A DNA stretch of 64,000 bases from an uncultured Clostridia bacterium (GCA_947630765.1 CANRIX010000012.1:12129-76128); one strand, 5' to 3'; shown: positions 3,693 to 62,973, numbered from the stretch's first letter. The notes: generated by a model not told the origin, from the sequence alone. Numbers and translations are program-made.

Positions 3693-5108
3693 ATGGGAAT
3701 GAAGAAACGCATCGGCATTTTGGCGTCTGCTGTTCTGCTGTTCGTGACGGCGTGCGCGAACGTCGCTTTGCCGCCGGACGCGCTGAAGGAATCGACGTCC
3801 CAGCGGCTGGAGGAGATCGCGAGCGCCCTGCCGCAGACGGACGATTTCCGCGGGACGTCGCTGACCGTCCTGACGGCGGACGAAGCGGTCGTCGACGGCG
3901 ACGAAGATGCCGCCGGGTCGGTTCGGGAAGCGCTGCGGAACCGCAACGAGCTGATTCGCACGTCCTACGGCATGGAAGTCACGGTCAAAACCGTCCCGGA
4001 GGCGGATATCCTGCAAACCCTGCAGGACGCCCGGCAGGCAGGGCTGTCCGCGGGGGATTTGCTCTGCTATTCCGCCGAAACGACGGCGAGTTTGTGGGCG
4101 GACGGACTGTTGCAGGACCTGACCAAGCTGCCGTATTTCTCGCTCGGCGAGTCCTGTTTCGGGGCGGACGCGGCGGAAAAACTGCGGACGGGGGATGCGG
4201 TGTATCTGCTGCCCGACCCGTCGGCGCAAAGCTATGACGGAGCTTATGTGCTGTTCTATGACCGGGAACTGGTGCGCTCGACCGGGCTCCCCCTGCCGGA
4301 AGCGCGGGTGACGGACGGCGACTGGACGTTGGAGGTATTTCAACAGTACGCGGAAGCAGTCGCGTCGTCGGTGATGCACAAGCAGAGCTACGATCTGCAG
4401 ACCGACGTGTTCGGCTATTCCGCAAAGGACAACACGGGTCTGCTGCCGTACCTGCTCTGGTGCGGGACGGACGACGCGCTGTTCGCGCGGAAGGACGGCG
4501 GGAAAACCGACTACGTATACGACACCGCCGACACGCTGAAAGAACGCGTCGAACCGCTGCGTGCGGTGTACGGGAGCGCCTGCCGCAGTCCGCTGGACGG
4601 CGACGAGGCGGCGAAGGCGTTTTCCGAGGGGCGGCTGGGCTTCCTGTTTGCGAAATTGGAGGAAATTAAAAATCTCTACGCCAACGCCAAACGGGAATAC
4701 GGCATTCTTCCGCTCCCCAAGCGGGACAAGGCGCAGAAATCCTATCGCTGTCCGATTGCCGCAGACGGGCGGGTGTTTTCGGCCCCCTCCGCGGCGGCGG
4801 ATCGGTCGCGGAGCGGCTTGGGACTGCTCGCCGTCTGCGCTGCCGGCGGCGGACTGCTGCAGGAGGCGGAGGTGCGGACTTACGTCACCCTGTATTCGAT
4901 GGACAACGACCAGACCTGTATGCTGGAGACCCTGCTCGGCTGCGCCGACTTCGATTTCGGCTGGGTGTACGGGACGCAGGAGCGAACGGTGCGCGGGCTG
5001 TCGACCGAGCTGATGAACGACGTGCTGGCGAACGGCGTGTCGTATCCGAACGCGCTTCGCCCGTATCTCGACGGATTCCGGCAGTATGCGCAGGAAAATT
5101 TCTCCTGA
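3693..5108 (+). CDS. Lipoprotein, extracellular solute-binding protein-like (ABC-type SBP, family 1-like), orphan
   Basis: 471 aa. Lipoprotein signal MKKRIGILASAVLLFVTAC. The protein is paralogous to the 24758-26302 product (VLFYDRELVRSTGLPLP..DGDWTLE versus IYFNKTLFDQYGLEYP..DMKWTLDE). No permease or ATPase gene is adjacent. Confidence 0.55.
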   Translation: MGMKKRIGILASAVLLFVTACANVALPPDALKESTSQRLEEIASALPQTDDFRGTSLTVLTADEAVVDGDEDAAGSVREALRNRNELIRTSYGMEVTVKTVPEADILQTLQDARQAGLSAGDLLCYSAETTASLWADGLLQDLTKLPYFSLGESCFGADAAEKLRTGDAVYLLPDPSAQSYDGAYVLFYDRELVRSTGLPLPEARVTDGDWTLEVFQQYAEAVASSVMHKQSYDLQTDVFGYSAKDNTGLLPYLLWCGTDDALFARKDGGKTDYVYDTADTLKERVEPLRAVYGSACRSPLDGDEAAKAFSEGRLGFLFAKLEEIKNLYANAKREYGILPLPKRDKAQKSYRCPIAADGRVFSAPSAAADRSRSGLGLLAVCAAGGGLLQEAEVRTYVTLYSMDNDQTCMLETLLGCADFDFGWVYGTQERTVRGLSTELMNDVLANGVSYPNALRPYLDGFRQYAQENFS

Positions 5109-11313: not shown

Positions 11314-11356
11314 GGCGACCGATTTGCCGCGAAAGCGGTCGGTCGCCCCTTTTTTT
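11314..11356 (+). terminator. Rho-independent terminator after capA
   Basis: GGCGACCGA (11314-11322) pairs with TCGGTCGCC (11339-11347), followed by CC and TTTTTTT (11350-11356). Confidence 0.85.
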
Positions 11357-11389: not shown

Positions 11390-11418
11390 TTGCAATTCCC
11401 GAAGGAATGTGCTATAAT
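11390..11418 (+). promoter_or_regulatory. Sigma-A-type promoter of the CotH/VTC/DUF4956 operon
   Basis: TTGCAA (11390-11395), 17 nt, TATAAT (11413-11418) preceded by TGc (extended -10). It sits directly after the capA terminator. Confidence 0.7.
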
Positions 11419-11485
11419 ACACCGTCTTTGGACCCTTTGGGATTTCTTGGGATCTTTGCGGAATGCGGAGGGAGGTTCGTCGCAC

Positions 11486-14400
11486 ATGTGGAAAAAGCAG
11501 GAAGCGAAAATCATTCTGCTCGTCGCGGTCGCTTTGCTCGCTGTCGTCGCCGTCGGTCTGGCGGTCGATCGGTACCGCACCGTGACGGACGTCGTTCCGG
11601 GGGAAGTGGAAGAGGTGGACCTGCTCATCACGGAGGTCTGCGCGAAGAACACGTCCATCGTGGAGGATAACGGCGGAAAACACGCCGATTATATTGAGAT
11701 CTACAATCGCGGAAACGACTGCGACCTCGAGGGCTTTACCCTCTCCGACGGCAAGCAGACGTCCGAGCCGTTCGGTCCGACGCCGTTCGCGAGCGGGGAG
11801 TACAAGGTCTTTTTCGTCGGATGGGACAGCATGGGCTTTTCCCTTTCCGCGTCGGGTGGGGAGACGATTACGCTGCGCAACCGCGACGGGTCCGTCGCGG
11901 CGCAGGTGACGACGGTCTCCATGCTGGAGGACCAGGTCATGCTCTGGAACGGGGCGGGCTACGAGCTGTCCGACACCCCCTCCCCCGGCTTCCCGAATAC
12001 GAGGGAGGGCAGCCTCGCGTTCACGCAGGGCGAGCCGGACGAAAACCCGTCCGTGACCGTCAGCGAGCTGCTCGTCAGCAATCGGAGCTCGCTCCCGGAC
12101 GAAAACGGTGTCTTTTGCGACGTCGTGGAGCTTTGCAACCTGACGGACGCGCCGGTTTCGCTGGGCGGGTATTACCTGTCCGACCGAAAGGAGAACCGCT
12201 TCCGCTACGCCCTGCCGTCGGTGACATTGCCGGTCGGCGGATATTTCGTCGTGTTCTGCGACAGCGGTTCGGCGGATTCGTCGGACCAACCGCACGCGGG
12301 CTTCGGGCTGTCCGTCGGGGAAACGCTGTATTTGACTTCGCCGAGCGGAAAATACGTTTCGGTCGAGGTGCCGAGCCTGCCGGACGACCGTTCGCTTTCG
12401 CTGGCGGACGGCGACTACGCCGAAAGCCCGGTCACGCTTGGATTTCCCAACGACGAAACGGGGGAAGCGGCCTTCCTGAACAGCCGCATCGACGCGGATT
12501 CCCCGCTGGTCATCAGCGAACTGCTGCTCGCGGGTGACGGCACGCCGGTCGGCGGCGCGCTTTGCGACGCGGTCGAGGTCTATAACCGTTCCGCCGAGCC
12601 GGTGGATACGACCGGCTGGCACCTGACCGACGGCGAGGATCTGCTTCGCTACGCCTTGCCCGCCCGCACGCTCGCGCCCGGGGAGTACCTTGTGCTGTAC
12701 TGCGACCGGCAGAGCGGAGAGGGGCATACGGGCTTTGGGCTGTCCGTCGGGGAGACGGTGCGGCTGGTCTGCCCGGATTTTCGGTACAGCGAGCCGGTGA
12801 CCTGCGTTTCCGCCGGGGACGGCAAGTCCCTGCGGCGGGAGGAGGACGGTGGCGAGGTCGCCTATCGTTCCGGCGAGGTCACGATGGGCTTTGCGAACAC
12901 GGAGGACGGCGCGAAGCAGTTCGCTTCGTCCGTTTCGCCGGCGGAGCTGCGCATCTCGGAAGCGCTTGCGAGCAACACCAAGACCCTCAAAGGCCCGTAC
13001 GGCACCTGCTGCGACTGGGTGGAGCTACTCAACGTTTCCGACCAGCCGATCGACCTTTCGGGGTGGTATCTGTCCGACGACCCGGACGAGCTGCGGCAGG
13101 GGGCGCTTCCCGCCGAGACCATCGCACCGGGCGAATATTTCGTGGTATTCCTGAGTAAAACGACCGAGAACCTGCTTTCCGGCTACCCGGTCCTGCCGTT
13201 CGCGCTCTCCTCGGAGGGCGACCGGCTCTACCTGTCGCACGAGAGCGGCGGGACGCTGACCGTGGCGGACAGCGTCGTGCTTCCCGGTCTGCCAGCGGAT
13301 ATTTCCTACGGCCGCCCGCGCGGGGAGGACGGATTTTCCGCCCTCGCCGAACCGTCTCCCGGAAGCGCGAACGGCGCTTCCGCCGCGCTGTCTGCAGCGC
13401 CGACCGCCGTGACCGCGCAGGGTGTCTATAACGGCGTCGACGGGCTGGACGTGGTGCTGACCGGGCCGGGACCCATTTATTACACGCTTGACTGCTCCGA
13501 ACCGACGGTTTCTTCGCCGGTGTTCGGCGGGAGCATTCGCCTGACGAAAACCACGGTCGTCCGCGCGATCTGCTGCGAACCGGGCAAGATGCCCAGCCGC
13601 ACCGTCGACCTGACCTACCTGCTCAACGAGGGGCATACCCTCCCGGTCGCGACACTGGTGACGACGCCGGAGAACCTGTGGGACTACTACACGGGCATCT
13701 ATGTGGAGGGACCGGGCGCGGAAGCGGAATTCCCGCACGTCGGGGCGAATTACTGGCAGCCGTGGGAGAAGGAAGCGACGGTCTCGCTGTTTGAGCCGGA
13801 CGGCGGCGGATTCACCTCCCCTTGCGGGATCCGCATCTTCGGGGCGTATTCCCGTGCGTTGGCGATGAAGTCGTTTTCCTGCTTTTTTCGGGCGTCCTAC
13901 GGAAACTCCGCCCTGCGGTACCCGCTGTTCGGGGAGGACGGGCTGGACACATACGAGGCGTTTCTGTTCCGCAATACCGGGCAGGACTACGCCAAAGCGC
14001 GGATGCGCGACCCCCTGCTTGCCGACCTCATCTCGCGGGAGACCGACGTCGCGGTCCAGAAGAACCGCCCGGTCGTGCTCTATCTGAACGGCGAATTCTG
14101 GGGGGTTTACTATATTCGGGAAAAAATCAACGAAAATTACGTCGCCGGGAACTACAATGTCGACCAGGATCAGGTGGACCTGACCCGTGCCAACGGCACG
14201 ACCAGCAAGGCGTATCAGGAACTGATCTCCTACGTGCGCGGACACGACCTTTCCAATCAGGAAGCGTACGATTACGTCGCTTCGCAGGTGGACATCGACG
14301 AGTATATTGATTACATCATCGCGGAGATCTACATCGCCAACACCGACAACGGCAACATCAAGTTCTTCCGTGCGACCGGGGGCAAGTGGACGTGGATCTT

Positions 14401-14806
14401 CTACGACGTCGACCAGTCCTTCCGCTCGGCGGACTTCAATACGGTCGCCGAACACCTCAACCCGAACGGCACCGGCTCGATGGACCGATTCTCGACCGCC
14501 CTGATCAACGGACTTTTGCGCAATTCCGGCTTTCGCGAGCAGTTCCTGCGCCGGTTCGCGTGGCAGATGACGAACGTGTGGGCGGCGGACAAGGTGGTCG
14601 CCGCGATCGACGCCTATGAGCAGGCGATCCTGCCGGAGATGCAGCGGGACTGCGAGCGCTGGGACTTGAGCTTTTCGGACTGGCAGGCGCAGGTCGAGGG
14701 CGTGCGCAGCTTCGCGCGGCGGCGCGGACAGTACGTTCTTTCCCATTTGAAGGCGTATTTTTCGCTTTCGGAGGACGATCTGTGGACATACGGGTTCCCC
14801 GTTTGA
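11486..14806 (+). CDS. Membrane-anchored CotH-family atypical kinase with four lamin-tail (LTD) modules
   Basis: 1106 aa. ATG at 11486 after GGAGGGAGG; the ORF-track start at 11093 is a shadow over capA. Single N-terminal TM (IILLVAVALLAVVAVGLAV). Four LTD-like repeats are followed by a YYTLD..GSIRL chitobiase-C-like module. C-terminal CotH region: FLFRNTGQDY..LYLNGEFWGVYYIREK..FYDVDQSF. Confidence 0.85.
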   Translation: MWKKQEAKIILLVAVALLAVVAVGLAVDRYRTVTDVVPGEVEEVDLLITEVCAKNTSIVEDNGGKHADYIEIYNRGNDCDLEGFTLSDGKQTSEPFGPTPFASGEYKVFFVGWDSMGFSLSASGGETITLRNRDGSVAAQVTTVSMLEDQVMLWNGAGYELSDTPSPGFPNTREGSLAFTQGEPDENPSVTVSELLVSNRSSLPDENGVFCDVVELCNLTDAPVSLGGYYLSDRKENRFRYALPSVTLPVGGYFVVFCDSGSADSSDQPHAGFGLSVGETLYLTSPSGKYVSVEVPSLPDDRSLSLADGDYAESPVTLGFPNDETGEAAFLNSRIDADSPLVISELLLAGDGTPVGGALCDAVEVYNRSAEPVDTTGWHLTDGEDLLRYALPARTLAPGEYLVLYCDRQSGEGHTGFGLSVGETVRLVCPDFRYSEPVTCVSAGDGKSLRREEDGGEVAYRSGEVTMGFANTEDGAKQFASSVSPAELRISEALASNTKTLKGPYGTCCDWVELLNVSDQPIDLSGWYLSDDPDELRQGALPAETIAPGEYFVVFLSKTTENLLSGYPVLPFALSSEGDRLYLSHESGGTLTVADSVVLPGLPADISYGRPRGEDGFSALAEPSPGSANGASAALSAAPTAVTAQGVYNGVDGLDVVLTGPGPIYYTLDCSEPTVSSPVFGGSIRLTKTTVVRAICCEPGKMPSRTVDLTYLLNEGHTLPVATLVTTPENLWDYYTGIYVEGPGAEAEFPHVGANYWQPWEKEATVSLFEPDGGGFTSPCGIRIFGAYSRALAMKSFSCFFRASYGNSALRYPLFGEDGLDTYEAFLFRNTGQDYAKARMRDPLLADLISRETDVAVQKNRPVVLYLNGEFWGVYYIREKINENYVAGNYNVDQDQVDLTRANGTTSKAYQELISYVRGHDLSNQEAYDYVASQVDIDEYIDYIIAEIYIANTDNGNIKFFRATGGKWTWIFYDVDQSFRSADFNTVAEHLNPNGTGSMDRFSTALINGLLRNSGFREQFLRRFAWQMTNVWAADKVVAAIDAYEQAILPEMQRDCERWDLSFSDWQAQVEGVRSFARRRGQYVLSHLKAYFSLSEDDLWTYGFPV
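11621..13320 (+). repeat. Four tandem lamin-tail-domain (LTD)-like coding modules inside the CotH gene
   Basis: Modules start near 11621, 12053, 12503 and 12943. Each has the pattern [IV]SE[VL]...D.[VI]E[IL].N..d..[VI]dL.G[FWY].L[ST]D...(f)..lP...l.pGey.V.f, for example LITEVCAKN..DYIEIYNRGNDCDLEGFTLSDG and RISEALASN..DWVELLNVSDQPIDLSGWYLSDD. Confidence 0.7.
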
Positions 14807-14825
14807 ACCGGAAAGGAGCATTCGC

Positions 14826-15500
14826 GTGGCAACCAGACACGAGGAGAAGTTCCTCATCGACTACCGGCAGTACGTCCTGCTCCGCAGCCGTGCGGAAGCG
14901 GCGATGCGGCCGGACGAGCACGCCCCGGACGGGAGCTACCTGATCACGTCGCTCTACTATGACGACCGGCAGGACAGCGCGCTGGACGAAAAGCTGGACG
15001 GCGTGCGGGTGCATACGAAGTACCGCGTGCGGACCTATGGCGCGGACGGGGACTTCATCCGGCTGGAACGCAAGGTCAAGCGCGGGATCATGACCGAAAA
15101 GCACAGCACGTCCCTGCAGAGGGAGCAGATCCCCCTGCTGAGCGACCCAGCGACGGCGCTCGGAACCTTCTCTGGGCGGGGATTGGTGATGGCGGCGGAC
15201 ATGCGCTCGCGCGGGCTGCTGCCGTCCGTGACCGTCCGCTACCGGCGGGACGCGTTCGTCTACCCCGGGACCGACACCCGCCTGACGTTCGACACGCACG
15301 TTGAAGCGCTTCCGCCGACGGCGGAGCATCTTTTCGACGCGTCCGGCGCGGGCATTCCCGCCCTGCCGCCGCAGACCGTGGTGATGGAGGTCAAGTACGG
15401 GGAGTACCTGCCCGCGTTCGTGCGAAAGCTCAGCGCCGTCTGCGGCGGGATGCAGCTTTCCGTTTCCAAATATGCGCTTTGCCGTGCCGTATGGCACTGA
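14826..15500 (+). CDS. VTC-domain (polyphosphate-polymerase-like, CYTH-like tunnel fold) protein
   Basis: 224 aa. GTG lies 7 nt after AAGGAG. N-terminal RHEEKFLI..Y and alternating basic/aromatic strands (ITSLYYDD, TKYRVRTYG, IRLERKVK, MEVKY) are typical of bacterial VTC-domain proteins. No signal peptide or TM. Confidence 0.75.
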   Translation: MATRHEEKFLIDYRQYVLLRSRAEAAMRPDEHAPDGSYLITSLYYDDRQDSALDEKLDGVRVHTKYRVRTYGADGDFIRLERKVKRGIMTEKHSTSLQREQIPLLSDPATALGTFSGRGLVMAADMRSRGLLPSVTVRYRRDAFVYPGTDTRLTFDTHVEALPPTAEHLFDASGAGIPALPPQTVVMEVKYGEYLPAFVRKLSAVCGGMQLSVSKYALCRAVWH

Positions 15501-15527
15501 ATCTGAAGAGAAAGGAAAACAATCGTC

Positions 15528-16196
15528 ATGAGTTTTGCGGATACGATCAAAAAAAGCGTTCTGGAGGGGTTCCAATCGGACATCAGCGCGACCCGCGTGG
15601 TGCTGTCGCTGCTGTTTTCGTTGCTCGCGGCGCTCTTTATCCTGCTGATCTACCGGCTGACGATGCGGGGCATCGCCGCCAGCCGCGGTTACGAGATCAC
15701 GCTGCTTCTGGTGACGTCGATCAGCGCCATGATCGTGCTGACGATCACGTCCAACCTCGCGCTGTCGCTCGGCATGGTCGGTGCGCTCTCCATCGTGCGC
15801 TTTCGCACGGCGCTGAAGGAATCGTCGGACACGGCGTTCATGTTCTGGTGCGTCGCTGCGGGGATCACGTCCGGGGCGGGCTTCTACCTGATCACGCTTA
15901 TCGGCTGCCTGTTCATCGGGCTGGTCGCGCTCATCGCGTCGCGACTGACCCGCAACGGGACGCGGCCGTACCTGCTCGTGATCCGCACGGAAGCGGAAAA
16001 CACGGCGGCAAGCGTCGAAAAGCTGCTCGCGGAGAACCACGTCCACCGTCGCCTTTCCTCCCTCGTGCAGAACGACCGCTACGCGGAGATCATCTACGAG
16101 ATCAGCGTTTCCGCCGCCCAGCAGCGCCTGGTCGCCGCCGTCCGTACCCTGCCGGGCGTGACGACGGTTTCCCTCGTGGATTGCCGGAATTCCTGA
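15528..16196 (+). CDS. DUF4956-family integral membrane protein
   Basis: 222 aa. Several TM helices and the conserved LSIVRFRTALKESSDTAFMFW stretch, followed by a soluble C-terminal tail. It starts 27 nt after the VTC gene. Confidence 0.7.
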   Translation: MSFADTIKKSVLEGFQSDISATRVVLSLLFSLLAALFILLIYRLTMRGIAASRGYEITLLLVTSISAMIVLTITSNLALSLGMVGALSIVRFRTALKESSDTAFMFWCVAAGITSGAGFYLITLIGCLFIGLVALIASRLTRNGTRPYLLVIRTEAENTAASVEKLLAENHVHRRLSSLVQNDRYAEIIYEISVSAAQQRLVAAVRTLPGVTTVSLVDCRNS

Positions 16197-16218: not shown

Positions 16219-16247
16219 TTGACAGGGCGTATTCGGCGTGGTATACT
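16219..16247 (+). promoter_or_regulatory. Sigma-A-type promoter upstream of the OadB-like gene
   Basis: TTGACA (16219-16224), 17 nt, TATACT (16242-16247). A small ACGGAAA/TTTCCGT hairpin at 16197-16213 precedes it. Confidence 0.6.
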
Positions 16248-17859: not shown

Positions 17860-18058
17860 GATTTTTAACATGGGGAGTAGTATTCCAAAAACTGCCTAAA
17901 CGCGGGCAGAGGATGCTGTTTTTCGGTGTAGGAAGGGTCTGGGCCGCCGGTTTCGGATCGAGGAGACGATGCGGGAGCGGCGGAACGGGAATTTTCCGGC
18001 GGGTGCTCCGCGATGCCTTGCGGAACGCCCGAAAAAAGTGTTGGAAAGGAAGGAATTT

Positions 18059-21000
18059 ATGAGCAAGTTCGGTACAAACAAGAGATGGATCGCATTGCTG
18101 CTGGCTGTCGTCATGCTGACGGGCATTCCGATCGCCACCGGCGCATTTTCCGTGAAAGCGGATGAATTCTTGCGGTTCACAGAAACTGACGTCTCGCCGG
18201 AGATCCATAAGGGCCTGGGCGATTTGCTGCCCGACGCCCCGCTTGCGCAGGAACCGGCGCCGGACGACGTGGTTCGTGTGTCCATCGTTCTGGAGGATGC
18301 ACCCACGCTGCAGAAAAAGTATTCCACCATCGGTATTGCGGCAAACGCAGAGGCAATGGCGTACAGCGATTCCCTGCGCGAGAAGCAGAATGCGGTGGAA
18401 AGCGTCATCGAGCGCGACGTCCTGCAGGGAAAACAGCTGGACGTGGTGTGGAATCTGACGCTCGCCGCCAACATCATCTCCGCAAACGTTGCATACGGGC
18501 GCGTTGACGCCATCAAATCCGTTTCCGGCGTCAAGGACGTCGTTTTGGAAAAGCAGTATGCGCCTGCGGTGGTAAATGATGAGCTGCCTGCCGACCCCAA
18601 CATGGGCACCTCCTCCGCTCAAATCGGTTCTCCTGCCGCTTGGGCCGGGAAGTTCTACGGTGCGGGAAGCAAAGTCGCGATCATCGACACGGGCATTGAT
18701 ACGAATCATCAGTCCTTCGACGAAGCGGCGTTCAATTACGCGCTCGAACAGCATGAAGTGACCGATACGCAAAAGGATTCCATGCTGACGGAGAAAGAGG
18801 TTCAGGAGCTTCTGAGCAAGCTGCATATCGCGGACCTCGCCGATCCGGACAAGATTTTCGTTTCCAATAAGATTCCGTTCGCATTCAACTATGTGGACGA
18901 AAACCACGATATTACGCACGACAATGACGAACAAGGCGAACACGGTTCCCACGTCAGCGGTATCGCTGCGGCAAACGCCTTTATCCCGCAGGGCGACGGT
19001 TTTGTTCCCGCGCTGGACGCGGTCAAGACGCAGGGCGTTGCGCCCGATGCGCAGATCCTGACTATGAAGGTGTTCGGTTCCAGCGGCGGCGCCTATGAAT
19101 CCGACTACATGGTCGCGATCGAGGACGCGATCCTGCTGGGTGCGGATTCCGTCAACCTGTCGCTGGGCTCCGCGGCGCCTGGTTTCGGCAACAGCGGCAT
19201 CTATGACGAAATCCTCAACGACCTGATGGTCAACAGCGACACGGTCGTTACCATGTCCGCCGGCAACAACGGCTACTGGGCGGAGAATTCCGAAGTCGGC
19301 GACCTGTTCGGCGACGACGTGAGCTTCCACACCGGCGGCTCGCCCGGAAGCTTTACGAATTCCCTCGCGGTCGCGTCCGTGGATAACGTCGGTCGTACCG
19401 ATTATTATGTCCGCGTGGGCGACAAAATGGTCTTCTATACCGATACCAACGCCAACTACGGGAAACCCGGTCTGGCTTCCATCGCCAGCGACGAGGCGTA
19501 CCCGTTTGTCTACCTCGACACGGTCGGTATTCATACGACGACGTTCCTCGGCACGATTACGGTGACGCTTGAGGATCAGCTTGAAGAGCTGGACGAGCAT
19601 CTGAAGGCGAACGGCGACGAAAACGGTCTGAAGGGCAAGGTCGTCCTTGTCAACCGCGGTATTTCGAGCTTCGCGCTCAAGTGCTCCGCCGCGGCGGAGC
19701 TCGGCGCGGCTGCCGTGATCATCGTCGACAATGCCCCGGGCAGCACCATCAACATGGATCTGACCGATTATACCGGCGAAGTGCCTGCCGTTGCCATTTC
19801 CATGGAGGACGGCGCCCTGTTCCGTGCCGGCGGCATTGCCGGAAAGGTTCCCGTTCAGTATGACAACGACGGCGAGAACAACCCGTGGGATGCGCCCTAC
19901 TACACCGGCGAATTCTACATTTCCGCGGAAGTCGGCTCCACCGACAGCGAAGCGGACCCGGACAATCGCTACACGATGTCCAGCTTCTCCTCCTGGGGCG
20001 TTCCCGGATCTCTGGTCATGAAGCCTGAGATCACCGCTCCCGGCGGAAACATCTATTCCGTCAACGGCGCGATCGAAAGCGGCGACGCTTACGAGAATAT
20101 GTCCGGCACCTCCATGGCGGCGCCGCAGGTGACCGGCATGGTTGCGGTCGTCGCGCAGTACATTCGCGAGAACGAGGCGAAGTTTGATCAGGTTGACTTC
20201 GACTATCGCCGCGCGCTCATCAACAGCCTGCTGATGTCCACGGCCAAGCCGGTCATCGCGGAGGACGGCAGTTACTACTCCATCCTCAGCCAGGGCGCCG
20301 GTCTTGCCAACGTCGGCGCGGCGATCCAGGCGCAGGCGGTCATTCAAATGGCGGAGAACGCCACGGCTTCCTATGCCGACGGCAAGGTCAAAGTCGAACT
20401 CGGCGACGACCCGAAGAAGGACGGCACCTACACGTATTCGTTCCTGATCACCAACGTGGGTGAAACGGATAATGAATACTTGCTTTCCACCGATCTGTTC
20501 ACGCAGGACCTGTACGAAGCGTATGGGTACACTTGGTTGGACACCGCGACCACGGAGCTGGGCGCATCGGTCAGCTACACGGTCCTCGCTGCTGATTTCA
20601 ATCGCGACGGCGTGACCGATTCGCGTGACGCGCAGGATATTCTTGATTATCTTTCCGACAGCGGCAAGATCGATCCTGAGACGGTCGATCCCGAAGCGGG
20701 CGATATGGACGGAGACGGCGAACTGACGACCTACGACGCGCATCTGATCCTTGCCGGGGCCGGCAAGACTGTCGATGCGGGCGCCGGTGATTCCATCGTC
20801 GTGGCCGCCGGCGAAACCGTCACGGTCAATGTTACCATCAACGTCAACAAGAGAGACCTTTCCGCTTACGAAAACGGCGCGTATGTCGAGGGTTACACCT
20901 TTGTGACGGCCGTTCCGAACGAAGAAGGCGTGCAGGATGTGGAGTACTCCATCCCGATCCTCGGGTTCTACGGGAATTGGAGCGAACCCTCCATGTTCGA

Positions 21001-24000
21001 CCGCACCAACTATCAGGAAACCGCGGATTACATCATTTACGGTCAGGACAGCGGGAATATCCCGTATAACAGCGATACGTCTATGTCCAACGTCCTGATC
21101 TATAAGGACAGCAACACCAAAGCCGAAGACGGAAAGCTCATCAACCCGTTCTATGCATACGGTCTCCCGGACCTCGGCGGTTTTGACTTCTACGATACCG
21201 ATGCGTCGCGCACCTCCATCAAGAGCAGCGACACGCTGGTCGGTTATGAATTCGCACTGATCCGCAACGCGTATGTGGCGGCCGTCATTGAAGATGCGGC
21301 GGGGAACGTCCTCGGTCTCACGGCTCCCACCGAGACAAACAGCGGATTCTACTACACCAACGGACAGGTTTGGCAGTCCCTCGTTTCCATGATGGGGATC
21401 AACCAGAAGGTTTCCGCGCTCGGACTTGACGAAGGCGACAGCTTCACCGTCAAGCTGGTTGCGCTGCCCGAATACTACTTCGGAAAAGCGCTTTCCGAGA
21501 GTGCGGAAGGCGAGCCGGTCAACACCGTTACTGCAAACGAGTTCCAGACCGTTTACAATACGGTCGAGATCGGAGATGGCGCGGTCCTTTCCACGACCAT
21601 GACCATTGACGATACCAAGCCGGAAATGCTTACGGCCCGCAGAAAGATGAGCGGCGAACTGGAGGTCACCCTGCAGGATAACCGTTATGTCGCGCACGTC
21701 AGCCTGAGAACGGCGGACGGCACCGGCTTCATCGACTGCGTTCTTCCCGAGCAAACCGCGCCGAACCAGGAATGCGTCGTCACCTTCCCGTGGCAAGAGG
21801 TCCAGACTCTTGTCAATGCGACTGAAGAAAACAAGGTCATGATCTATGTGGCCGACTACGCGGAGAACATTCACGCGTATATCATTGATCTGGCGACGGA
21901 AGAGGCCGAAGAAGCGGCTCCCACGGATATCGAACTTCCGGCGGAGGTCCACGTCTTTAACGGCGGCGTTTCCAGCGTCACGGCGACGATCCTCCCCTCG
22001 ATCATGACCGCGTCTGATTTGAACTGGTCGGTCGATAATCCCGAGGTCGCCGACGTGGACGAATTCGGAAACGTCACGGGTCTCAGCGTCGGCGAGGCGA
22101 CCCTCACCGCCGCTTCCAAGAAGGATCCTTCGATCAATGCGACCTCCAAGATCGTCGTCAAGGATGCGCCGAGCATTGATCTCGCAGGTATGGTCTTCAA
22201 CAAGGACAGCGAAACCTGGTGGAGCACCTTCAACCTGCAGGATCCCAGCCAATTCAAGCAAGTCGCGCAGGGTCCGGCGCTGTACGCGGGCGATTTCGCG
22301 CTTGGCTTCCAAACGATGTACGGGCATGACGGGACCAACGTCTGGAGAGTGGATATGAACACCTTCGAGTCGAAGTCGCTGTTTGCCATGAATCCGACAT
22401 ACCTGTTCCCGGACGCGGCTGTGAATAACTACTTTGCGGTGTATGGCGCGGGCGATTACGCGCTCCTTGCGCCGCAGGCGAACAGTGCGATCCTGATGAT
22501 CCTGCTGCCGGAAGCGGGCAATTTGTACACGGTCGATCTTTCGAGCGCGCTTCCCAGCAACATCTGCGCCATCGCGTTCAGCGGAATGGATGATTACAGT
22601 GAGCGCGACTACTACTACATGCTGCTGGAGAACGGCGACCTGTATCAGATTTATCTGTCCTCTGCCGGAAGCCTCGGCTACGGTCCGGTCGGCAACGTCG
22701 GCATGACCTTCGACGGCGCCGCCGCTGCGGACGGCACTTCGGTCACGTCCATGATGTACAGCTTCACCGCAAGAGAGTCGTTGTATCCGGACGGCATGAC
22801 CGAGCCGCTGCTCCTGACCCACTACAAGGAAGGGGACAGCACTGCGTATCTCTCCCTCATTGAAATCACCTTTGACGACATGGGCGATATCGCCTTCTGC
22901 GGAATCGCGGGTTCGATGCCCTTCGGCGACGCAGTCTGGCCGGTCAGCGCTCTGTACGATCCCGAGATGGTCGAGCCGGCTGACGAAGGCAACACCGTAC
23001 ACGCGCTTGCGGAGTACACGGTCGTCAACAACCTGTCCGACAAGATGTCGATGGTCGCCCCGGAAACCGAAAGCACTGCGCTCGGCGGAACGGGCAGCAC
23101 GTTCGTTCTGAATAAGAAGAACGGCGGCTCCGTCGCGCCCAATTCGATCGGCGTGGGCGGCAGCACGACCTACAACGTGGTGGATGTGGCGAACAACACC
23201 GTCACGATTGATATTTCTGCGGACGATTCTACGAACGGCCTGTTCAAGGTCGCCTGCCCTGCCGAACTGTCCCTGGTCAGTGTCGAGGGGTTGGTAGACT
23301 TCTATGCAAACGGCACTGCCGAGGATGGCTCCGTCGTCTTTGCATACGCCGACGCCGATTCTTTGACCTGCCCGGTCGCGAAACTGGTCTTCTCCTATGA
23401 GGAGGCGGACGAGTTGAAGCTGGTCGGGAAGACCGTCGATGTGACCACGGTCGAAGACGGCGAACCCGGCAAGGCGGAATCCGTCGAAACCATTCTGTTG
23501 ACCTTCGAGCCGGAGAGCTACGAGCTTTCTGTGCAGGTGGTTGACGGTTCTCACGATGCGCCGAATACCATCACCGAGGGCGAGGAAGCTTCCTTCACGA
23601 TCAAACCGAACGAAGGGTACAAACTGCCTGAGAGCGTCACCGTCACCATGAACGGTGAGGCGATGGATTCTGCGAACTACACCTACGATCCCGAAACCGG
23701 AGCTGTGACGCTGCAGAGCGACTACATCACCGGGCCGATCGTCGTCACGGCGTCCTGCGTCTACGTTCCGAAGGAATTCACGACCGACGCAGATGTGGAT
23801 AACGGCAGCACGACGATCCCGGAAACGGTGACCGAAGGCGAAGATGTTTCCTTCACGGTCAAACCGTCTGAAGGTTACAAGCTGCCTGAAAGCATCACGG
23901 TCAAGGTGAACGGCGTCGCTCTTGCGGCAGGTGACTACACCTACAACGCAGAGACCGGCGAAGTGGTGATTCCGGGCGACAAGGTGACTGGTCCGATCTC

Positions 24001-24319
24001 GGTTGAGGTCGCGTTTGTGGCTGCCGATGCCCCCGGAGACGAACCTTCTGAAGGCGACACTTCCTCCGGAGATACTCCCTCTGGTGGCGATACCTCCTCT
24101 GGTGACGACACCTCGAGCACGACGCCCGGAACTTCCTCCGGCGACGAAACTTCAAGCACGGCGCCCGGAACCTCTTCCGGCGACGAATCCACCAGCCCGA
24201 CCACGGGCGACGACGCGAGCATCCTGTTCTTCGCAATCATGGGTGTTCTGGCGCTGGTCGGCGCGATCTCGGCGGTGCGCCTGCGCAGATTTTCCCTTGA
24301 TGAAAAGCGTGGTCACTAA
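18059..24319 (+). CDS. Cell-surface subtilisin-like (S8, lactocepin/C5a-peptidase-type) protease with PA, dockerin-like, Big_2 and cohesin-like modules and a C-terminal SPxTG sorting signal
   Basis: 2086 aa from the ATG at 18059 (RBS GGAAAGGAAGG), with signal peptide MSKFGTNKRWIALLLAVVMLTGIPIATGAFSVKA. Catalytic triad contexts: VAIIDTGID, EHGSHVSGIAA, MSGTSMAAPQVTG. PA insert: GKVVLVNRGISSF..AAVIIVDN. The ORF-track start at 17969 adds 30 non-signal residues. Confidence 0.92.
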   Translation: MSKFGTNKRWIALLLAVVMLTGIPIATGAFSVKADEFLRFTETDVSPEIHKGLGDLLPDAPLAQEPAPDDVVRVSIVLEDAPTLQKKYSTIGIAANAEAMAYSDSLREKQNAVESVIERDVLQGKQLDVVWNLTLAANIISANVAYGRVDAIKSVSGVKDVVLEKQYAPAVVNDELPADPNMGTSSAQIGSPAAWAGKFYGAGSKVAIIDTGIDTNHQSFDEAAFNYALEQHEVTDTQKDSMLTEKEVQELLSKLHIADLADPDKIFVSNKIPFAFNYVDENHDITHDNDEQGEHGSHVSGIAAANAFIPQGDGFVPALDAVKTQGVAPDAQILTMKVFGSSGGAYESDYMVAIEDAILLGADSVNLSLGSAAPGFGNSGIYDEILNDLMVNSDTVVTMSAGNNGYWAENSEVGDLFGDDVSFHTGGSPGSFTNSLAVASVDNVGRTDYYVRVGDKMVFYTDTNANYGKPGLASIASDEAYPFVYLDTVGIHTTTFLGTITVTLEDQLEELDEHLKANGDENGLKGKVVLVNRGISSFALKCSAAAELGAAAVIIVDNAPGSTINMDLTDYTGEVPAVAISMEDGALFRAGGIAGKVPVQYDNDGENNPWDAPYYTGEFYISAEVGSTDSEADPDNRYTMSSFSSWGVPGSLVMKPEITAPGGNIYSVNGAIESGDAYENMSGTSMAAPQVTGMVAVVAQYIRENEAKFDQVDFDYRRALINSLLMSTAKPVIAEDGSYYSILSQGAGLANVGAAIQAQAVIQMAENATASYADGKVKVELGDDPKKDGTYTYSFLITNVGETDNEYLLSTDLFTQDLYEAYGYTWLDTATTELGASVSYTVLAADFNRDGVTDSRDAQDILDYLSDSGKIDPETVDPEAGDMDGDGELTTYDAHLILAGAGKTVDAGAGDSIVVAAGETVTVNVTINVNKRDLSAYENGAYVEGYTFVTAVPNEEGVQDVEYSIPILGFYGNWSEPSMFDRTNYQETADYIIYGQDSGNIPYNSDTSMSNVLIYKDSNTKAEDGKLINPFYAYGLPDLGGFDFYDTDASRTSIKSSDTLVGYEFALIRNAYVAAVIEDAAGNVLGLTAPTETNSGFYYTNGQVWQSLVSMMGINQKVSALGLDEGDSFTVKLVALPEYYFGKALSESAEGEPVNTVTANEFQTVYNTVEIGDGAVLSTTMTIDDTKPEMLTARRKMSGELEVTLQDNRYVAHVSLRTADGTGFIDCVLPEQTAPNQECVVTFPWQEVQTLVNATEENKVMIYVADYAENIHAYIIDLATEEAEEAAPTDIELPAEVHVFNGGVSSVTATILPSIMTASDLNWSVDNPEVADVDEFGNVTGLSVGEATLTAASKKDPSINATSKIVVKDAPSIDLAGMVFNKDSETWWSTFNLQDPSQFKQVAQGPALYAGDFALGFQTMYGHDGTNVWRVDMNTFESKSLFAMNPTYLFPDAAVNNYFAVYGAGDYALLAPQANSAILMILLPEAGNLYTVDLSSALPSNICAIAFSGMDDYSERDYYYMLLENGDLYQIYLSSAGSLGYGPVGNVGMTFDGAAAADGTSVTSMMYSFTARESLYPDGMTEPLLLTHYKEGDSTAYLSLIEITFDDMGDIAFCGIAGSMPFGDAVWPVSALYDPEMVEPADEGNTVHALAEYTVVNNLSDKMSMVAPETESTALGGTGSTFVLNKKNGGSVAPNSIGVGGSTTYNVVDVANNTVTIDISADDSTNGLFKVACPAELSLVSVEGLVDFYANGTAEDGSVVFAYADADSLTCPVAKLVFSYEEADELKLVGKTVDVTTVEDGEPGKAESVETILLTFEPESYELSVQVVDGSHDAPNTITEGEEASFTIKPNEGYKLPESVTVTMNGEAMDSANYTYDPETGAVTLQSDYITGPIVVTASCVYVPKEFTTDADVDNGSTTIPETVTEGEDVSFTVKPSEGYKLPESITVKVNGVALAAGDYTYNAETGEVVIPGDKVTGPISVEVAFVAADAPGDEPSEGDTSSGDTPSGGDTSSGDDTSSTTPGTSSGDETSSTAPGTSSGDESTSPTTGDDASILFFAIMGVLALVGAISAVRLRRFSLDEKRGH
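20594..20758 (+). other. Internal dockerin-like (duplicated EF-hand-type Ca-binding) module of the S8 protease
   Basis: DFNRDGVTDSRDAQDILDYL ... DMDGDGELTTYDAHLILAG: two D-x-[ND]-x-D-G-x-x-x-x-x-D loops, each followed by a helix, about 35 aa apart. Confidence 0.6.
23168..23515 (+). other. Cohesin-like beta-sandwich module of the S8 protease (tentative)
   Basis: TYNVVDVANNTVTIDISADDSTNGLFKVACPAELSLVSVEG..GSVVFAYADADSL..VAKLVFSYE follows the cohesin pattern (selected strand, x-x-[FV]-x-[YC]-[DP]-x-x-[VL]-x-[LV], later G-x-[IV]-x-F.. and [IV]A.[IL].F). The call is by eye only. Confidence 0.4.
23516..24019 (+). repeat. Two tandem ~84-aa repeat domains in the S8 protease C-terminal region
   Basis: R1 (23516-23773) and R2 (23774-24019) align throughout: T[IV]TEGE[ED].SFT[IV]KP[NS]EGYKLPES[VI]TV..NG.a....YTY[DN].ETG.V....D..TGPI.V. 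Confidence 0.8.
24194..24316 (+). other. Sortase-type cell-wall sorting signal with SPxTG motif
   Basis: SPTTG (24194-24208), then the hydrophobic stretch ASILFFAIMGVLALVGAISAV, then the basic tail RLRRFSLDEKRGH. It is preceded by a Ser/Thr/Gly/Asp-rich linker (24019-24193). Confidence 0.7.
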
Positions 24320-24757: not shown

Positions 24758-26302
24758 TTATTTTTTATTTGTCTTAAACGTTTCGATCAGACTGTCCAGG
24801 GCCGTTTGCGCCGCGCTTTCCAGCGATTGATAGGCGGACGTGAATTGTCCGGGCGTCTGAGACGCGAGGCTGGTCAGCATCGTCGAAAGGTTGTTCGAGG
24901 CGTCGCCGAGCGTGTAGATGTGCGCAAGGTCGGTGCCGGTGGTGCTGAAGATGATGTCCAGCATCTCCTTATCCTCGTCCGTGTGGAGCTTTTGATACTG
25001 CAAAACCACGTCGTAGTAGGTCTTGGCGACGGTATCAACGGAGTAGCCGCCGAGCGCGTCGAGAATGACCTGCGCCTGGTAGGATCTCGTTTCGTCCAGT
25101 CCGGCGGGAATGCAGTAGGCGTTCGACGACCAAGCGCCGATCATCGTGTAGTACTGTCCCTGCTCCAAATCGTACATCGGGGCAGGCAGAAGACCGAACT
25201 CGCCCTCCATGTCGCCGAGTCGGAGCGCCGTTTCCGCGTTGCCGGAATAGAACAGGCACCGATTCGCCTTGAAGGCCTCCTCGAGCAGGATCATCGGCGT
25301 GGGGGATTCGCTGAAGAAGTCGTCGCCGAGCACGTATTCCGCGTCGTTCTGCATGAGGGAGATGATTTTATCGACGACGTTGGAGCTTCTCTGGTTGTAC
25401 ATCGAGAGGATCAACGTGTCCTGCTCGTCCGGGCGGACGATGCGTTCGCCGGAGGCGTAGAACAGGTTGTGCATATCGCCGTTTTGCCCGCTCCAGCCGT
25501 AGGAGTCGTGGTAGGTGATGATCCCGTCGCCGTCAAGGTCCTGGCTGAGCCCGACCTGCGAAATGATGGAAAGCACCTCGTCGAGGGTCCATTTCATATC
25601 CCGCACGGTCTGGTAGGGATACTCCAGGCCGTACTGGTCAAACAGCGTCTTGTTGAAGTAGATGCAGTTGGCGGCGTTCTTGGCGCGCAGGCCGATGTCG
25701 CCGGTCAGATAGTAGGTGCTGCCCCCGATGGAGGTGTCCTTGATGATGATCTGGTCCCACCACGGGTTGGAGACGTCGATTCCCTCGGCGCTGCTGAGGT
25801 CGAGCAGCAGCCCGTTCGCCGCCATCGTCCCCGCGTCGATCAGGCAGGGGTAGTAGATGTCGTAGTCGAACGTACCGGCGGCCGCAAATTGCTGGACGGC
25901 GGACAGAAAACTGCCGTTATACCGCTTCGGGTCGATCTCAATTTTTTCCTCGATCTTGACGCCATACGCGTCCTCGACCAGGCGGGTGCGGTTCACGATC
26001 TCGTCGCTGAGCACCTTGGGACAGGTTTCGTTATTCTCGTTATTGCCGATCTCGGTGACGTATGCGTCGTTGAAGGCTGCGGTAAAGACCTTGACGGTCT
26101 GCCCTTGAAACGCGTCCGTTTCGACGAGATGTCCTTCGGCTTCCGAGGGGGCTGCCCTGCTGACCGCGTCAGAGGATCCGCTGGCAGACGTATCGGCTTC
26201 GCCCGATTCTTCCGCGCAGCCTGCGCAGACCACGGCGCAGAGTAGCGAAAGCAGCAGGCAGAGCGCGACGGTCGCTTTGACATGCAAATGCAGGTGTTTC
26301 AT
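24758..26302 (-). CDS. Lipoprotein, extracellular solute-binding protein-like (ABC-type SBP, family 1-like), orphan
   Basis: 514 aa from the ATG at 26302. Lipoprotein signal MKHLHLHVKATVALCLLLSLLCAVVCAGC. SBP-like body (TVKVFTAAFND.., NPWWDQ, YYLTGD). The ORF-track entry to 26797 is a shadow extension. It has its own promoter and terminator. Confidence 0.6.
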   Translation of the reverse strand: MKHLHLHVKATVALCLLLSLLCAVVCAGCAEESGEADTSASGSSDAVSRAAPSEAEGHLVETDAFQGQTVKVFTAAFNDAYVTEIGNNENNETCPKVLSDEIVNRTRLVEDAYGVKIEEKIEIDPKRYNGSFLSAVQQFAAAGTFDYDIYYPCLIDAGTMAANGLLLDLSSAEGIDVSNPWWDQIIIKDTSIGGSTYYLTGDIGLRAKNAANCIYFNKTLFDQYGLEYPYQTVRDMKWTLDEVLSIISQVGLSQDLDGDGIITYHDSYGWSGQNGDMHNLFYASGERIVRPDEQDTLILSMYNQRSSNVVDKIISLMQNDAEYVLGDDFFSESPTPMILLEEAFKANRCLFYSGNAETALRLGDMEGEFGLLPAPMYDLEQGQYYTMIGAWSSNAYCIPAGLDETRSYQAQVILDALGGYSVDTVAKTYYDVVLQYQKLHTDEDKEMLDIIFSTTGTDLAHIYTLGDASNNLSTMLTSLASQTPGQFTSAYQSLESAAQTALDSLIETFKTNKK

Positions 26303-26337
26303 GGTCAAATGTTCCTTTCTGTTTTTCGTTTCACCAC

Positions 26338-26366
26338 AGTATACCATATTTCCTGCGGAAATGCAA
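26338..26366 (-). promoter_or_regulatory. Sigma-A-type promoter (minus strand) of the second SBP-like gene
   Basis: Read on the minus strand: TTGCAT (26366-26361), 17 nt, TATACT (26343-26338). Confidence 0.6.
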
Positions 26367-26377
26367 GGGCAAACGGC

Positions 26378-26425
26378 ACAAAAAATACAAAAGACCGGCG
26401 GTTCCACGTTTAGGTGGAGCCGCCG
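26378..26425 (-). terminator. Rho-independent terminator (minus strand) ending the murQ / GDPD / cohesin-dockerin unit
   Basis: On the minus strand, CGGCGGCTCCAC pairs with GTGGAACCGCCG (11 of 12 bp; plus coordinates 26396-26425), followed by GTCTTTTGTATTTTTT. Confidence 0.7.
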
Positions 26426-26442
26426 ATCTCGCAGGAAAGTAT

Positions 26443-27237
26443 TTACTGCAATCGGAAGGTGCCGAGGACGTGCCGCTTGATCAACATGTAATCCGTCGCG
26501 TTGGTCCCGCCGTCCCAGTTCACGTCTGCGAGACGCATCTGCCTGTCCGTGAGCCGGAAGGTGCGAAGGACGTGCCGCTTGACCAGCAGATAGTCCGTCG
26601 CGTTGACCTTGCCGTCGCCGGAGACGTCGCCGTTCACGCCGTCCGGCGCGACCAGGTTCAGCCGGAGCGAGAACCGCTCTTCCGCGACGCGGAGGGCGCC
26701 GGACGCAGAGGAAAGGGAATTTTCCGGCGAAACCGTTGGGGAGCCCGGCGTCACCGTGACCGTTGTCGTGACCCCGGACTTGCGCGGACGAAAGCAAACG
26801 CTAAACAGCGTGCCGCTTGCGCGGGAGCGGTTGACGGCGCTCCCGGACGTGACGGTAAGCTCCCCCTGCGCCGCCATGGAGACGTTGACTGTTGTTACAT
26901 CGCCGTCGGGGATCATGGTCCAGCCGTCCGAATAAGCGTCGGTGAAGCAGCAGCCGGTATTCCGTTCGGACTGCGGAGTGCGCGCCAGTTCGAGCACCGT
27001 CGGGTCCCAGCGGACCGTGACGACGTAGGACGCGATCTTCGATTCGCCGCTCCCTGCCGAAAGGTTGACGGCGACGCGGAACAGGTCGGCGTCCGTCCCG
27101 CCGACGGAGATGTCGTCCGTTCGGACGGAGGCGGAAAACCTCGCTTGCGCGGCAGACGCGGCGCCGGCAGGAAACGAAAACGCGAACAGCAGCGCCAGCG
27201 CGAATGCGAGGAAAAGCAAACGTTTTTGGGCTTTGAT
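26443..27237 (-). CDS. Secreted cohesin-like + dockerin protein (small adaptor/scaffoldin-like)
   Basis: After the signal-like segment KAQKRLLFLAFALALLFAFSFPAGA comes a cohesin-like module (about 26740-27141: LFRVAVNLSAGSGESKIASYVVTVRWDPTVLEL..GTLFSVCFRPRK). Then a C-terminal dockerin (26446-26631: GDVSGDGKVNATDYLLVKRHVL..DVNWDGGTNATDYMLIKRHVLGTF). The start is uncertain: ATC 27237, TTG 27219 or TTG 27321; there is no in-frame ATG or GTG. Confidence 0.65.
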   Translation of the reverse strand: MKAQKRLLFLAFALALLFAFSFPAGAASAAQARFSASVRTDDISVGGTDADLFRVAVNLSAGSGESKIASYVVTVRWDPTVLELARTPQSERNTGCCFTDAYSDGWTMIPDGDVTTVNVSMAAQGELTVTSGSAVNRSRASGTLFSVCFRPRKSGVTTTVTVTPGSPTVSPENSLSSASGALRVAEERFSLRLNLVAPDGVNGDVSGDGKVNATDYLLVKRHVLRTFRLTDRQMRLADVNWDGGTNATDYMLIKRHVLGTFRLQ

Positions 27238-30388: not shown

Positions 30389-30441
30389 TGAGGTGAACTC
30401 CTTTTCTGCGATTTTATCTGTTTTTCTTTTTTCTCTCTCGG

Positions 30442-37472: not shown

Positions 37473-37504
37473 GTTTTGTTCGTCCTTTCGCACGCTTTTT
37501 GTTC

Positions 37505-62892: not shown

Positions 62893-62973
62893 GACTGACA
62901 TATCCTTTCCCGTTGGATTTACTCGCTTTAGTGTTGACCGGAACATTGGGAATTATACCCGAGCGGCGGGAAA

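Follow-up and report, generated by a model that had tools for sequence, protein, structure and literature searches.

The occurrence together of a CotH-family protein, a VTC-domain protein and a DUF4956 membrane protein is not in itself new. Among the accessory genes of Gram-positive pel operons, Whitfield et al. (2020, PLoS Pathog) recorded "cotH, PPP, DUF4956", which adjoin pelDEADAFG in bifidobacteria, clostridia and streptococci (PMC7112168), a 2025 study in mBio modelled the three proteins of the Streptococcus intermedius trio, SIR_1594-1592 (PMC12345266), and Lepp et al. tabulated genes of the trio in NELoc-2 of Clostridium perfringens (PMC2879425). Mutant phenotypes in S. intermedius were weak, deletion of either the CotH or the DUF4956 gene lowering aggregation and altering the level of Pel, and the same authors stated that the syntenic trio is absent outside pel loci (PMC12345266). 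Here we analysed a 64,000-nucleotide stretch of DNA (the window) from an uncultured Clostridia bacterium (GCA_947630765.1, CANRIX010000012.1:12129-76128), which carries the three genes as a self-contained operon. As in the pel accessory cassette, the three families follow one another in the order CotH, VTC, DUF4956 (genes 1, 2 and 3, respectively), contiguously and on the same strand, and in both settings a secreted or surface-located CotH protein is predicted to accompany a cytoplasmic VTC protein and a DUF4956 protein with about four transmembrane helices and an ACT domain. The window trio differs in that it is not contiguous with pelDEADAFG, Pfam scans having detected no Pel family anywhere in the 64 kb, and in that its CotH protein bears four lamin-tail domain (LTD) modules, a CHB_HEX_C module and an N-terminal anchor, whereas the pel-cassette CotH carries a C-terminal FN3 domain. 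What is new here is a trio free of pel, which contradicts the published claim that the three genes are confined to pel loci.

In order to follow the trio through other genomes, one genome per GTDB species was scanned, giving 221 VTC relatives, the best 80 of which with flanking sequence provided the genome-locus counts. In 80/80 of these loci the gene immediately 3' of VTC, on the same strand, is DUF4956, while a CotH gene adjoins the pair in 77 of the 78 informative ones, two of the 80 being cut by contig ends; the co-conservation anticipated in the first-pass annotation of this DNA is thus borne out. Around 60 closer loci show the order CotH-VTC-DUF4956 and the 35-40%-identity group shows VTC-DUF4956-CotH, so that the association has outlived a rearrangement, and the identities of the three proteins to those of the window co-vary over the loci (r = 0.84-0.87). 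The trio was also present on 5/5 sampled metagenome contigs long enough to include neighbouring genes. The 80 related genome loci were all free of pel genes within 10 kb of the trio, and PelF, PelG and the DUF2194 protein of L087, a locus where a copy of the trio is linked to pel, matched neither the window nor any of these loci when used as tblastn queries. The only informative locus lacking CotH (L078) has a Cthe_2159 beta-helix carbohydrate-binding protein (11432-13192) right after VTC-DUF4956; this arrangement of genes suggests that the external partner of VTC-DUF4956 can be swapped. A fourth conserved flanking partner was sought by clustering the flanking open reading frames (ORFs) and rejected, the runner-up being a housekeeping AI-2E transporter in 20/80 loci.

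Beyond the pel-linked copy, stand-alone LTD-CHB_HEX-CotH/VTC/DUF4956 operons were found in L081 and L092, a further trio sits within a YfhO/GT2/DegT/YdjC glycan cluster (L086), and the genes also occur on two plasmids of cultured bacteria, a Planococcus and a Pseudobutyrivibrio. On pNP95 of Pseudobutyrivibrio xylanivorans, they stand among the glycosyltransferases, acyltransferases and pyruvyl transferases of an exopolysaccharide cluster. On the Planococcus maritimus plasmid (L093, NZ_CP059541.1, 4470-12824), the succession is a hypothetical protein, VTC, DUF4956, CotH, a 689-aa hypothetical protein, a HEAT-repeat protein and a glycosyltransferase, which equals C. perfringens NELoc-2 (CP4_0459-0468) gene for gene, the DUF4956 genes of the latter having been labelled "tubulin/FtsZ, GTPase" (PMC2879425). 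From its gene content, this GT2/HEAT cluster would seem to be a second exopolysaccharide system employing the trio, distinct from pel. Since exopolysaccharide and wall-glycan clusters with acetyl- and pyruvyl-transferases recur around the trio, a glycan substrate and a decorating-enzyme role are suggested; such settings are typical of polymer-decorating enzymes. In addition, L089 (1-8375) holds two copies of the module within 8 kb, next to a glycosyltransferase, in the order DUF4956-CotH (cut by the locus end), FliD-like, GT_STM0557_N, CotH-VTC-DUF4956, directly upstream of secE-nusG-rplK.

Gene 1 had been read as a protein with one N-terminal transmembrane helix, four LTD modules and a CotH domain, and all of these were recovered. 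Its only hydrophobic segment is the N-terminal one, directly preceded by three Lys; the four LTD stretches were matched by Pfam at 1.3e-44 (with module boundaries set from motifs) in a region with an internal DNA repeat of 432-nt spacing; and the CotH domain (PF08757) scored 156.7 bits against a cut-off of 23.8. A CHB_HEX_C_1/Fn3_assoc module, absent from the first-pass annotation, lies between them. The first-pass reading of no signal-peptidase site is uncertain, cleavage at GLA|VD being possible; whether cleaved or anchored, the remainder of the protein is predicted to be extracytoplasmic. The predicted outward orientation of CotH, also put forward at the outset, agrees with the anchor-type N-terminus of gene 1 and of the trio-linked CotH proteins in general, a basic-then-hydrophobic N-terminus being seen in 11/11 distant and 50/56 close ones (the other close ones are truncated ORFs). 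A search of PDB with the single CotH sequence gave nothing useful and a profile was required; built from 18 trio-linked CotH domains, it reached Bacillus cereus CotH (5JD9) at 8e-26. The four active-site residues N952, D954, N957 and D974 are invariant in these 18 domains, and D954 and D974 are the equivalents of D228 and D251 of B. subtilis CotH, mutation of either of which inactivates the kinase (PMC7821199). Judged by its sequence, gene 1 encodes a CotH enzyme of the kinase fold whose Asp/Asn/Asp active site is intact. It thereby shares its Pfam family and the Asp/Asn/Asp residues with the Bacillus spore-coat Ser/Thr kinase CotH (5JD9/5JDA), but the latter acts in the mother-cell cytoplasm, with ATP as donor and CotB and CotG as substrates, whereas gene 1 is predicted to be membrane-anchored and outward-facing, has five extra Ig-like modules and lies in an operon with VTC and DUF4956. 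The LTD modules were also considered as electrostatic binders of polyphosphate (polyP), a role against which the strongly acidic ectodomain (pI 4.2-4.4) speaks.

Gene 2 encodes, as first annotated, a soluble VTC protein, matching the Pfam family (PF09359) over its full length (1.4e-30; 107.1 bits, cut-off 23; positions 2-235 of the 235-position profile) and containing no hydrophobic segment. A single-sequence search of PDB again returned nothing useful, while a profile of 32 VTC sequences led to yeast Vtc4 at 1.2e-5; a profile of the C-terminus alone did not reach Vtc4 in PDB. Fungal Vtc4 fragments were therefore retrieved and aligned to the VTC family with hhalign, which gave a probability of 93.6%, and with MAFFT. 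The AlphaFold2 (AF2) model of gene 2 is of high quality (predicted local distance difference test score, pLDDT, 89.6; predicted template-modelling score 0.87), and its top Foldseek matches are the Vtc4 structures 3G3Q and 3G3R (E 6.6e-13; template-modelling score 0.73). The catalytic Lys, Arg and Tyr residues of Vtc4, whose presence in gene 2 had been left to be checked, align with K8 (K200), R67/R69 (R264/R266), K83 (K281), K92 (K294), Y139 (Y359), R141 (R361), R152 (R373) and S214-K215 (S457-K458; Vtc4 numbering in brackets), and all of these residues, from K8 to K215, are invariant across the VTC family. Sequence and model together indicate that gene 2 encodes a tunnel enzyme of the Vtc4 type, located in the cytoplasm and equipped with the catalytic residues of the polymerase, and hence a candidate polyP polymerase.

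Compared with the eukaryotic VTC complex (Vtc4/Vtc3/Vtc1; 3G3Q, 7YTJ, 8I6V), gene 2 thus has the same tunnel fold and the same Lys/Arg/Tyr/Ser-Lys catalytic set, and in both cases the enzyme is paired with a membrane protein. The trio differs in having its catalytic domain as a separate 224-aa polypeptide, in the lack of any SPX match in its three proteins (Pfam), in a membrane partner that is MgtC-like with a putative ACT domain and unrelated to the Vtc subunits of three transmembrane helices, and in the destination of the product, which would be the cell exterior rather than the vacuole. A review of polyP surveyed VTC-domain proteins across eukaryotes only (PMC10657179); bacterial VTC proteins amount to 3647 representative clusters at E <= 1e-10. 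Among the 150 top-ranked VTC representatives, roughly one in four (e.g. P0367, P0369, P0371, P0384, P0400, P0446 and P0457) carries an N-terminal extension of 80-400 residues that is basic, rich in Pro/Arg/Lys/Glu and apparently disordered, and in which no Pfam domain was found; one of them, P0384, lies in an LTD-CotH/VTC/DUF4956 operon (L092 7001-8491). Possibly, this tail binds polyanions.

Gene 3 matches DUF4956 (PF16316) at 1.7e-10 (41.3 bits against a cut-off of 30.6), as do all 32 aligned homologues, so that the VTC and DUF4956 assignments of the first-pass annotation both hold as significant profile hidden Markov model matches. The family is very large (at least 7735 clusters), and its member is the most conserved of the three trio proteins; the transmembrane core hardly varies and has an R-F-R-x-x-x-K loop at its end. 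Weak in-register matches relate gene 3 to the MgtC/SapB/YhiD proteins, namely Pfam MgtC at 0.011 (16.6 bits, below the cut-off of 31.4) and the NCBIfam YhiD model at 7.5e-8 (32.2 bits against a cut-off of 214), both under the curated cut-offs. The C-terminal domain of its AF2 model (pLDDT 62) matches, with Foldseek, ACT domains including that of Mycobacterium tuberculosis MgtC (2LQJ, E 2.4e-4); this ACT-like domain is probably cytoplasmic. By these comparisons, DUF4956 is best described as a polytopic membrane protein distantly related to MgtC/YhiD and ending in an ACT-like domain, and not as a Vtc1-like channel. It stands apart from MgtC/SapB/YhiD as a Pfam family of its own with a distinctive invariant transmembrane core, and no pairing of an MgtC protein with a VTC enzyme is known.

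Overall, the reading that we prefer, and put forward tentatively as somewhat short of probable, is that the three genes form one functional membrane-spanning module, a stand-alone form of the cotH-PPP-DUF4956 cassette, which by analogy would serve the post-export phosphorylation of surface polymers. The VTC protein would make polyP or a short phosphate oligomer from ATP at the inner face of the membrane; DUF4956 would tether the VTC protein and pass polymer or phosphoryl groups across the membrane, its ACT domain perhaps sensing metabolites in place of the eukaryotic SPX domain; and the external CotH domain would transfer phosphate, or attach polymer, to a cell-surface polymer, most likely, to judge from the gene neighbourhoods elsewhere, an exopolysaccharide or wall glycopolymer, possibly a surface protein. 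Whatever in these steps goes past the identity of the domains, their conserved residues, the predicted topology and the linkage of the genes is what we infer; a polyP exporter feeding an extracellular kinase would be a plausible but unproven arrangement, and polyP as the phosphodonor of CotH is purely conjectural. The scheme recalls DltABCD, PatA/PatB and AlgI/AlgJ, in each of which a cytoplasmic donor enzyme is set beside a polytopic membrane protein and an extracytoplasmic transferase, and whose genes often lie within exopolysaccharide or wall-polymer clusters. These systems have no homology to the trio and move D-alanine or acetyl instead of phosphate or polyP, the likeness being one of analogy only. 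The idea of exported polyP reaching CotH appears to be unpublished, as our literature search found no paper proposing it as the donor for an external CotH protein. All told, what the first-pass annotation observed in the window is confirmed, and its interpretation is supported in part.

Why CotH kinases occur outside the cell, as they do in cellulosomes, in streptococcal secretomes and among Mucorales invasins, is an acknowledged puzzle. The conserved combination of a cytoplasmic VTC protein, a membrane DUF4956 protein and an external CotH protein in a pel-free, self-contained operon offers a concrete three-gene model for surface-polymer phosphorylation, and a good lead on the supply of extracellular CotH enzymes and on the role of bacterial VTC proteins. 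A bolder version, which we consider unlikely, is that a VTC-like polyP synthase-translocon, made of a Vtc4-type polymerase and an MgtC-superfamily membrane protein, exports polyP or its phosphoryl groups and so powers the outward-facing CotH, which would phosphorylate or polyphosphorylate surface glycans or proteins without extracellular ATP. If true, bacteria would have a third route to polyP besides PPK1 and PPK2, extracellular phosphorylation independent of ATP would have its first example, and an MgtC-like transmembrane domain its first molecular function. Should the mechanism be wrong, what remains is a conserved cassette of the ordinary kind that has already been annotated.

Several points weigh against the preferred reading. 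In S. intermedius, deletion of the VTC gene gave no clear phenotype (PMC12345266), and this outcome, set against the effects of the CotH and DUF4956 deletions, is not what a simple linear supply chain predicts. Many extracellular CotH proteins, e.g. cellulosomal ones, have been reported without mention of VTC or DUF4956 neighbours (PMC12774918). The first-pass annotation held that no function had been demonstrated for the trio; this stands in so far as our literature search found no paper showing an activity for a bacterial VTC, a DUF4956 or an extracellular CotH protein, itself a point on the negative side, but it must be completed by the published description of the trio as a pel accessory cassette (PMC7112168; PMC12345266) and in NELoc-2 (PMC2879425). 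The part of that annotation that fared worst is DUF4956 as a polyP channel, for which we found nothing in support: the gene 3 model is poor, giving four or five helices and the C-terminal beta-alpha-beta-beta-alpha-beta domain, the DUF4956 profile matched no chain in PDB, including the Vtc transmembrane subunits of 7YTJ and 8I6V, and the MgtC family, which sequence comparison points to as the sole detectable relatives of DUF4956, is not known to comprise channels. The acidity of the CotH ectodomain (pI 4.4) implies that binding of polyP would need bridging cations. The equivalence of E188 of gene 2 with Vtc4 E426 depends on the common (M/L)EVK motif, MAFFT shifting it by three columns. Finally, a search for VTC-DUF4956 or VTC-CotH fusion proteins found none.

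The rival explanation that survives best holds that polyP stays in the cytoplasm, that DUF4956 is an MgtC-like membrane regulator or anchor whose ACT domain senses a metabolite, perhaps modulating phosphate or ATP homeostasis, and that CotH works independently, with released ATP or without catalysis, the genes being co-transcribed for one envelope or biofilm programme. We judge it improbable, though to be taken seriously. A cytoplasmic location of the polyP of SIR_1593 was suggested by the authors of the mBio study (PMC12345266), and the likeness of DUF4956 to MgtC/YhiD with its ACT domain, the failure to find channel-like homology, and the difference between the VTC deletion phenotype and those of CotH and DUF4956 all speak in its favour. 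Co-regulation, however, leaves unexplained why adjacency is kept in 77/78 loci through an order permutation and unrelated contexts, why every linked CotH is predicted to be extracytoplasmic, and why nothing else in the system is conserved as strongly as the transmembrane core of DUF4956.

Less probable still, and in our view quite doubtful, is that gene 2 is a tunnel-fold hydrolase or cyclase (triphosphatase, polyphosphatase or NTPase) that gates or energises the MgtC-like protein, making the trio a small device for transmembrane signalling or regulation that governs surface CotH or exopolysaccharide output. Most characterised bacterial and archaeal tunnel enzymes do hydrolyse, and ygiF and SaTTM are the next-best structural matches of gene 2. 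Moreover, the bacterial beta-1 motif is an invariant R-H-E-E-K, where Vtc4 has (K/H)-T-T-K, and thereby retains one acidic residue, a Glu, of the classical hydrolytic ExExK motif at a position occupied by Thr in Vtc4, so that hydrolase chemistry is possible, which counts against the preferred reading too. Gene 2 is nevertheless nearer to Vtc4 (E 6.6e-13) than to the hydrolytic tunnel enzymes (1e-8 or weaker in Foldseek, with archaeal and plant triphosphatases also ranking below Vtc4), it matches Pfam VTC and not CYTH, and the mapped Vtc4 catalytic residues are invariant, including the Lys aligned with K458. As for three unrelated genes lying together by chance with no functional link, the probability is negligible, this explanation being effectively refuted by the conservation data and by the independent reports (PMC7112168, PMC12345266, PMC2879425).

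The coordinates of the operon and of its domains are given in Table 1.

Table 1. Features of the CotH/VTC/DUF4956 operon and its boundaries (positions in the window)
Feature	Residues	Position	Strand	Basis
Intrinsic terminator of upstream PGA_cap gene, operon 5' boundary		11314-11356	+	fold, U tract
Sigma-70-type promoter-like site, TTGCAA-17-TATAAT, extended -10 TG		11390-11418	+	10/12 consensus matches
Gene 1: surface-anchored multidomain CotH-family kinase-fold protein (predicted), 1106 aa		11486-14806	+	ORF, Pfam
N-terminal signal anchor (predicted)	~8-28	11507-11569	+	only hydrophobic segment of gene 1
Four lamin-tail (LTD) Ig-like modules	46-145, 190-297, 341-441, 488-600	11621-13285	+	Pfam LTD
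CHB_HEX_C_1/Fn3_assoc module	646-711	13421-13618	+	Pfam 8.7e-11 and 1.1e-09
CotH kinase domain; active-site N952, D954, N957, D974	782-1084	13829-14737	+	Pfam 1.3e-45
Gene 2: soluble Vtc4-like triphosphate-tunnel (VTC) protein, candidate polyphosphate polymerase, 224 aa		14826-15500	+	GTG start, Pfam
Gene 3: DUF4956 membrane protein, 222 aa		15528-16196	+	ORF, Pfam
MgtC-like transmembrane region	~22-143	15591-15956	+	weak MgtC/YhiD matches
ACT-like beta-alpha-beta-beta-alpha-beta domain	~146-218	15963-16181	+	low-confidence AF2 model, Foldseek
Promoter-like site of next gene (OAD_beta), operon 3' boundary		16219-16247	+	TTGACA-17-TATACT, 11/12 consensus matches

The layout first described for this locus, with a terminator followed by a promoter, three genes on one strand separated by gaps of 19 nt (genes 1 and 2) and 27 nt (genes 2 and 3), and a next gene with its own promoter, was reproduced, with exactly these gap lengths. 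The upstream hairpin folds at -24.9 kcal/mol (z = -3.9), none of 200 shuffled sequences (0/200) being as stable, and is directly followed 3' by seven U. Four promoter-like sites were found in the scan against 1.1 expected, and each consensus match by itself is weak evidence; the two at the operon are credible because of where they sit, the first one lying between the terminator and the ribosome-binding site (GGAGGGAGG) that precedes the ATG start of gene 1 at 11486. The mechanical ORF of gene 1 reaches back to 11093, the extra stretch holding the terminator and the promoter. No strong terminator was found 3' of gene 3, and the 3' end of the operon is thus less well defined than its 5' end. Genes 2 and 3 (14826-16196) share one reading frame, with two in-frame TGA codons within the 27 nt between them; were read-through to fuse them, the product would resemble eukaryotic Vtc4 in joining a VTC domain to a transmembrane part, but the common frame is probably a coincidence. 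A riboswitch or leader RNA upstream of gene 1 was rejected, there being no Rfam match at E <= 1 and a leader of only ~60 nt, and so was an anti-phage defence role, with no PADLOC match.

The window has a G+C content of 62%, and its closest relatives are metagenome-assembled genomes of uncultured Oscillospiraceae, "Ruminococcus" and Clostridia from rabbit and ruminant guts. The neighbours of the trio are unrelated to it, consisting upstream of ArsR, a P-type ATPase and a PGA_cap protein, and downstream of an OAD beta subunit, a 2116-aa S8 protease with a dockerin and a glycerophosphodiester phosphodiesterase (GDPD)-dockerin protein; the remainder of the 64 kb holds housekeeping genes. Type I dockerins occur on three secreted enzymes of the window, namely the 1205-aa GDPD (27314-30931, - strand), the 2116-aa S8 subtilase with PA and Big_2 domains (17969-24319, + strand) and a GDSL lipase (36597-37493, - strand), so that a scaffold resembling that of cellulosomes seems to be used by this organism for the display of non-cellulolytic enzymes. 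The extracellular GDPD lies 11 kb from the trio.

Further along, 55831-62946 (- strand) encodes a 2371-aa protein with GT2 (Glyco_trans_2_3), Glycoamylase and GH94 supersandwich and catalytic domains, an architecture that we take to be that of the cyclic beta-1,2-glucan synthases (Cgs/NdvB) and that, to our knowledge, would be unusual in a Clostridia genome. Two other ORFs, 24758-26797 (- strand, 679 aa) and 3693-5108 (+ strand, 471 aa), had no Pfam match at E <= 1e-3 and show a good third-position GC bias, the N-terminus of the 471-aa product being lipoprotein-like.

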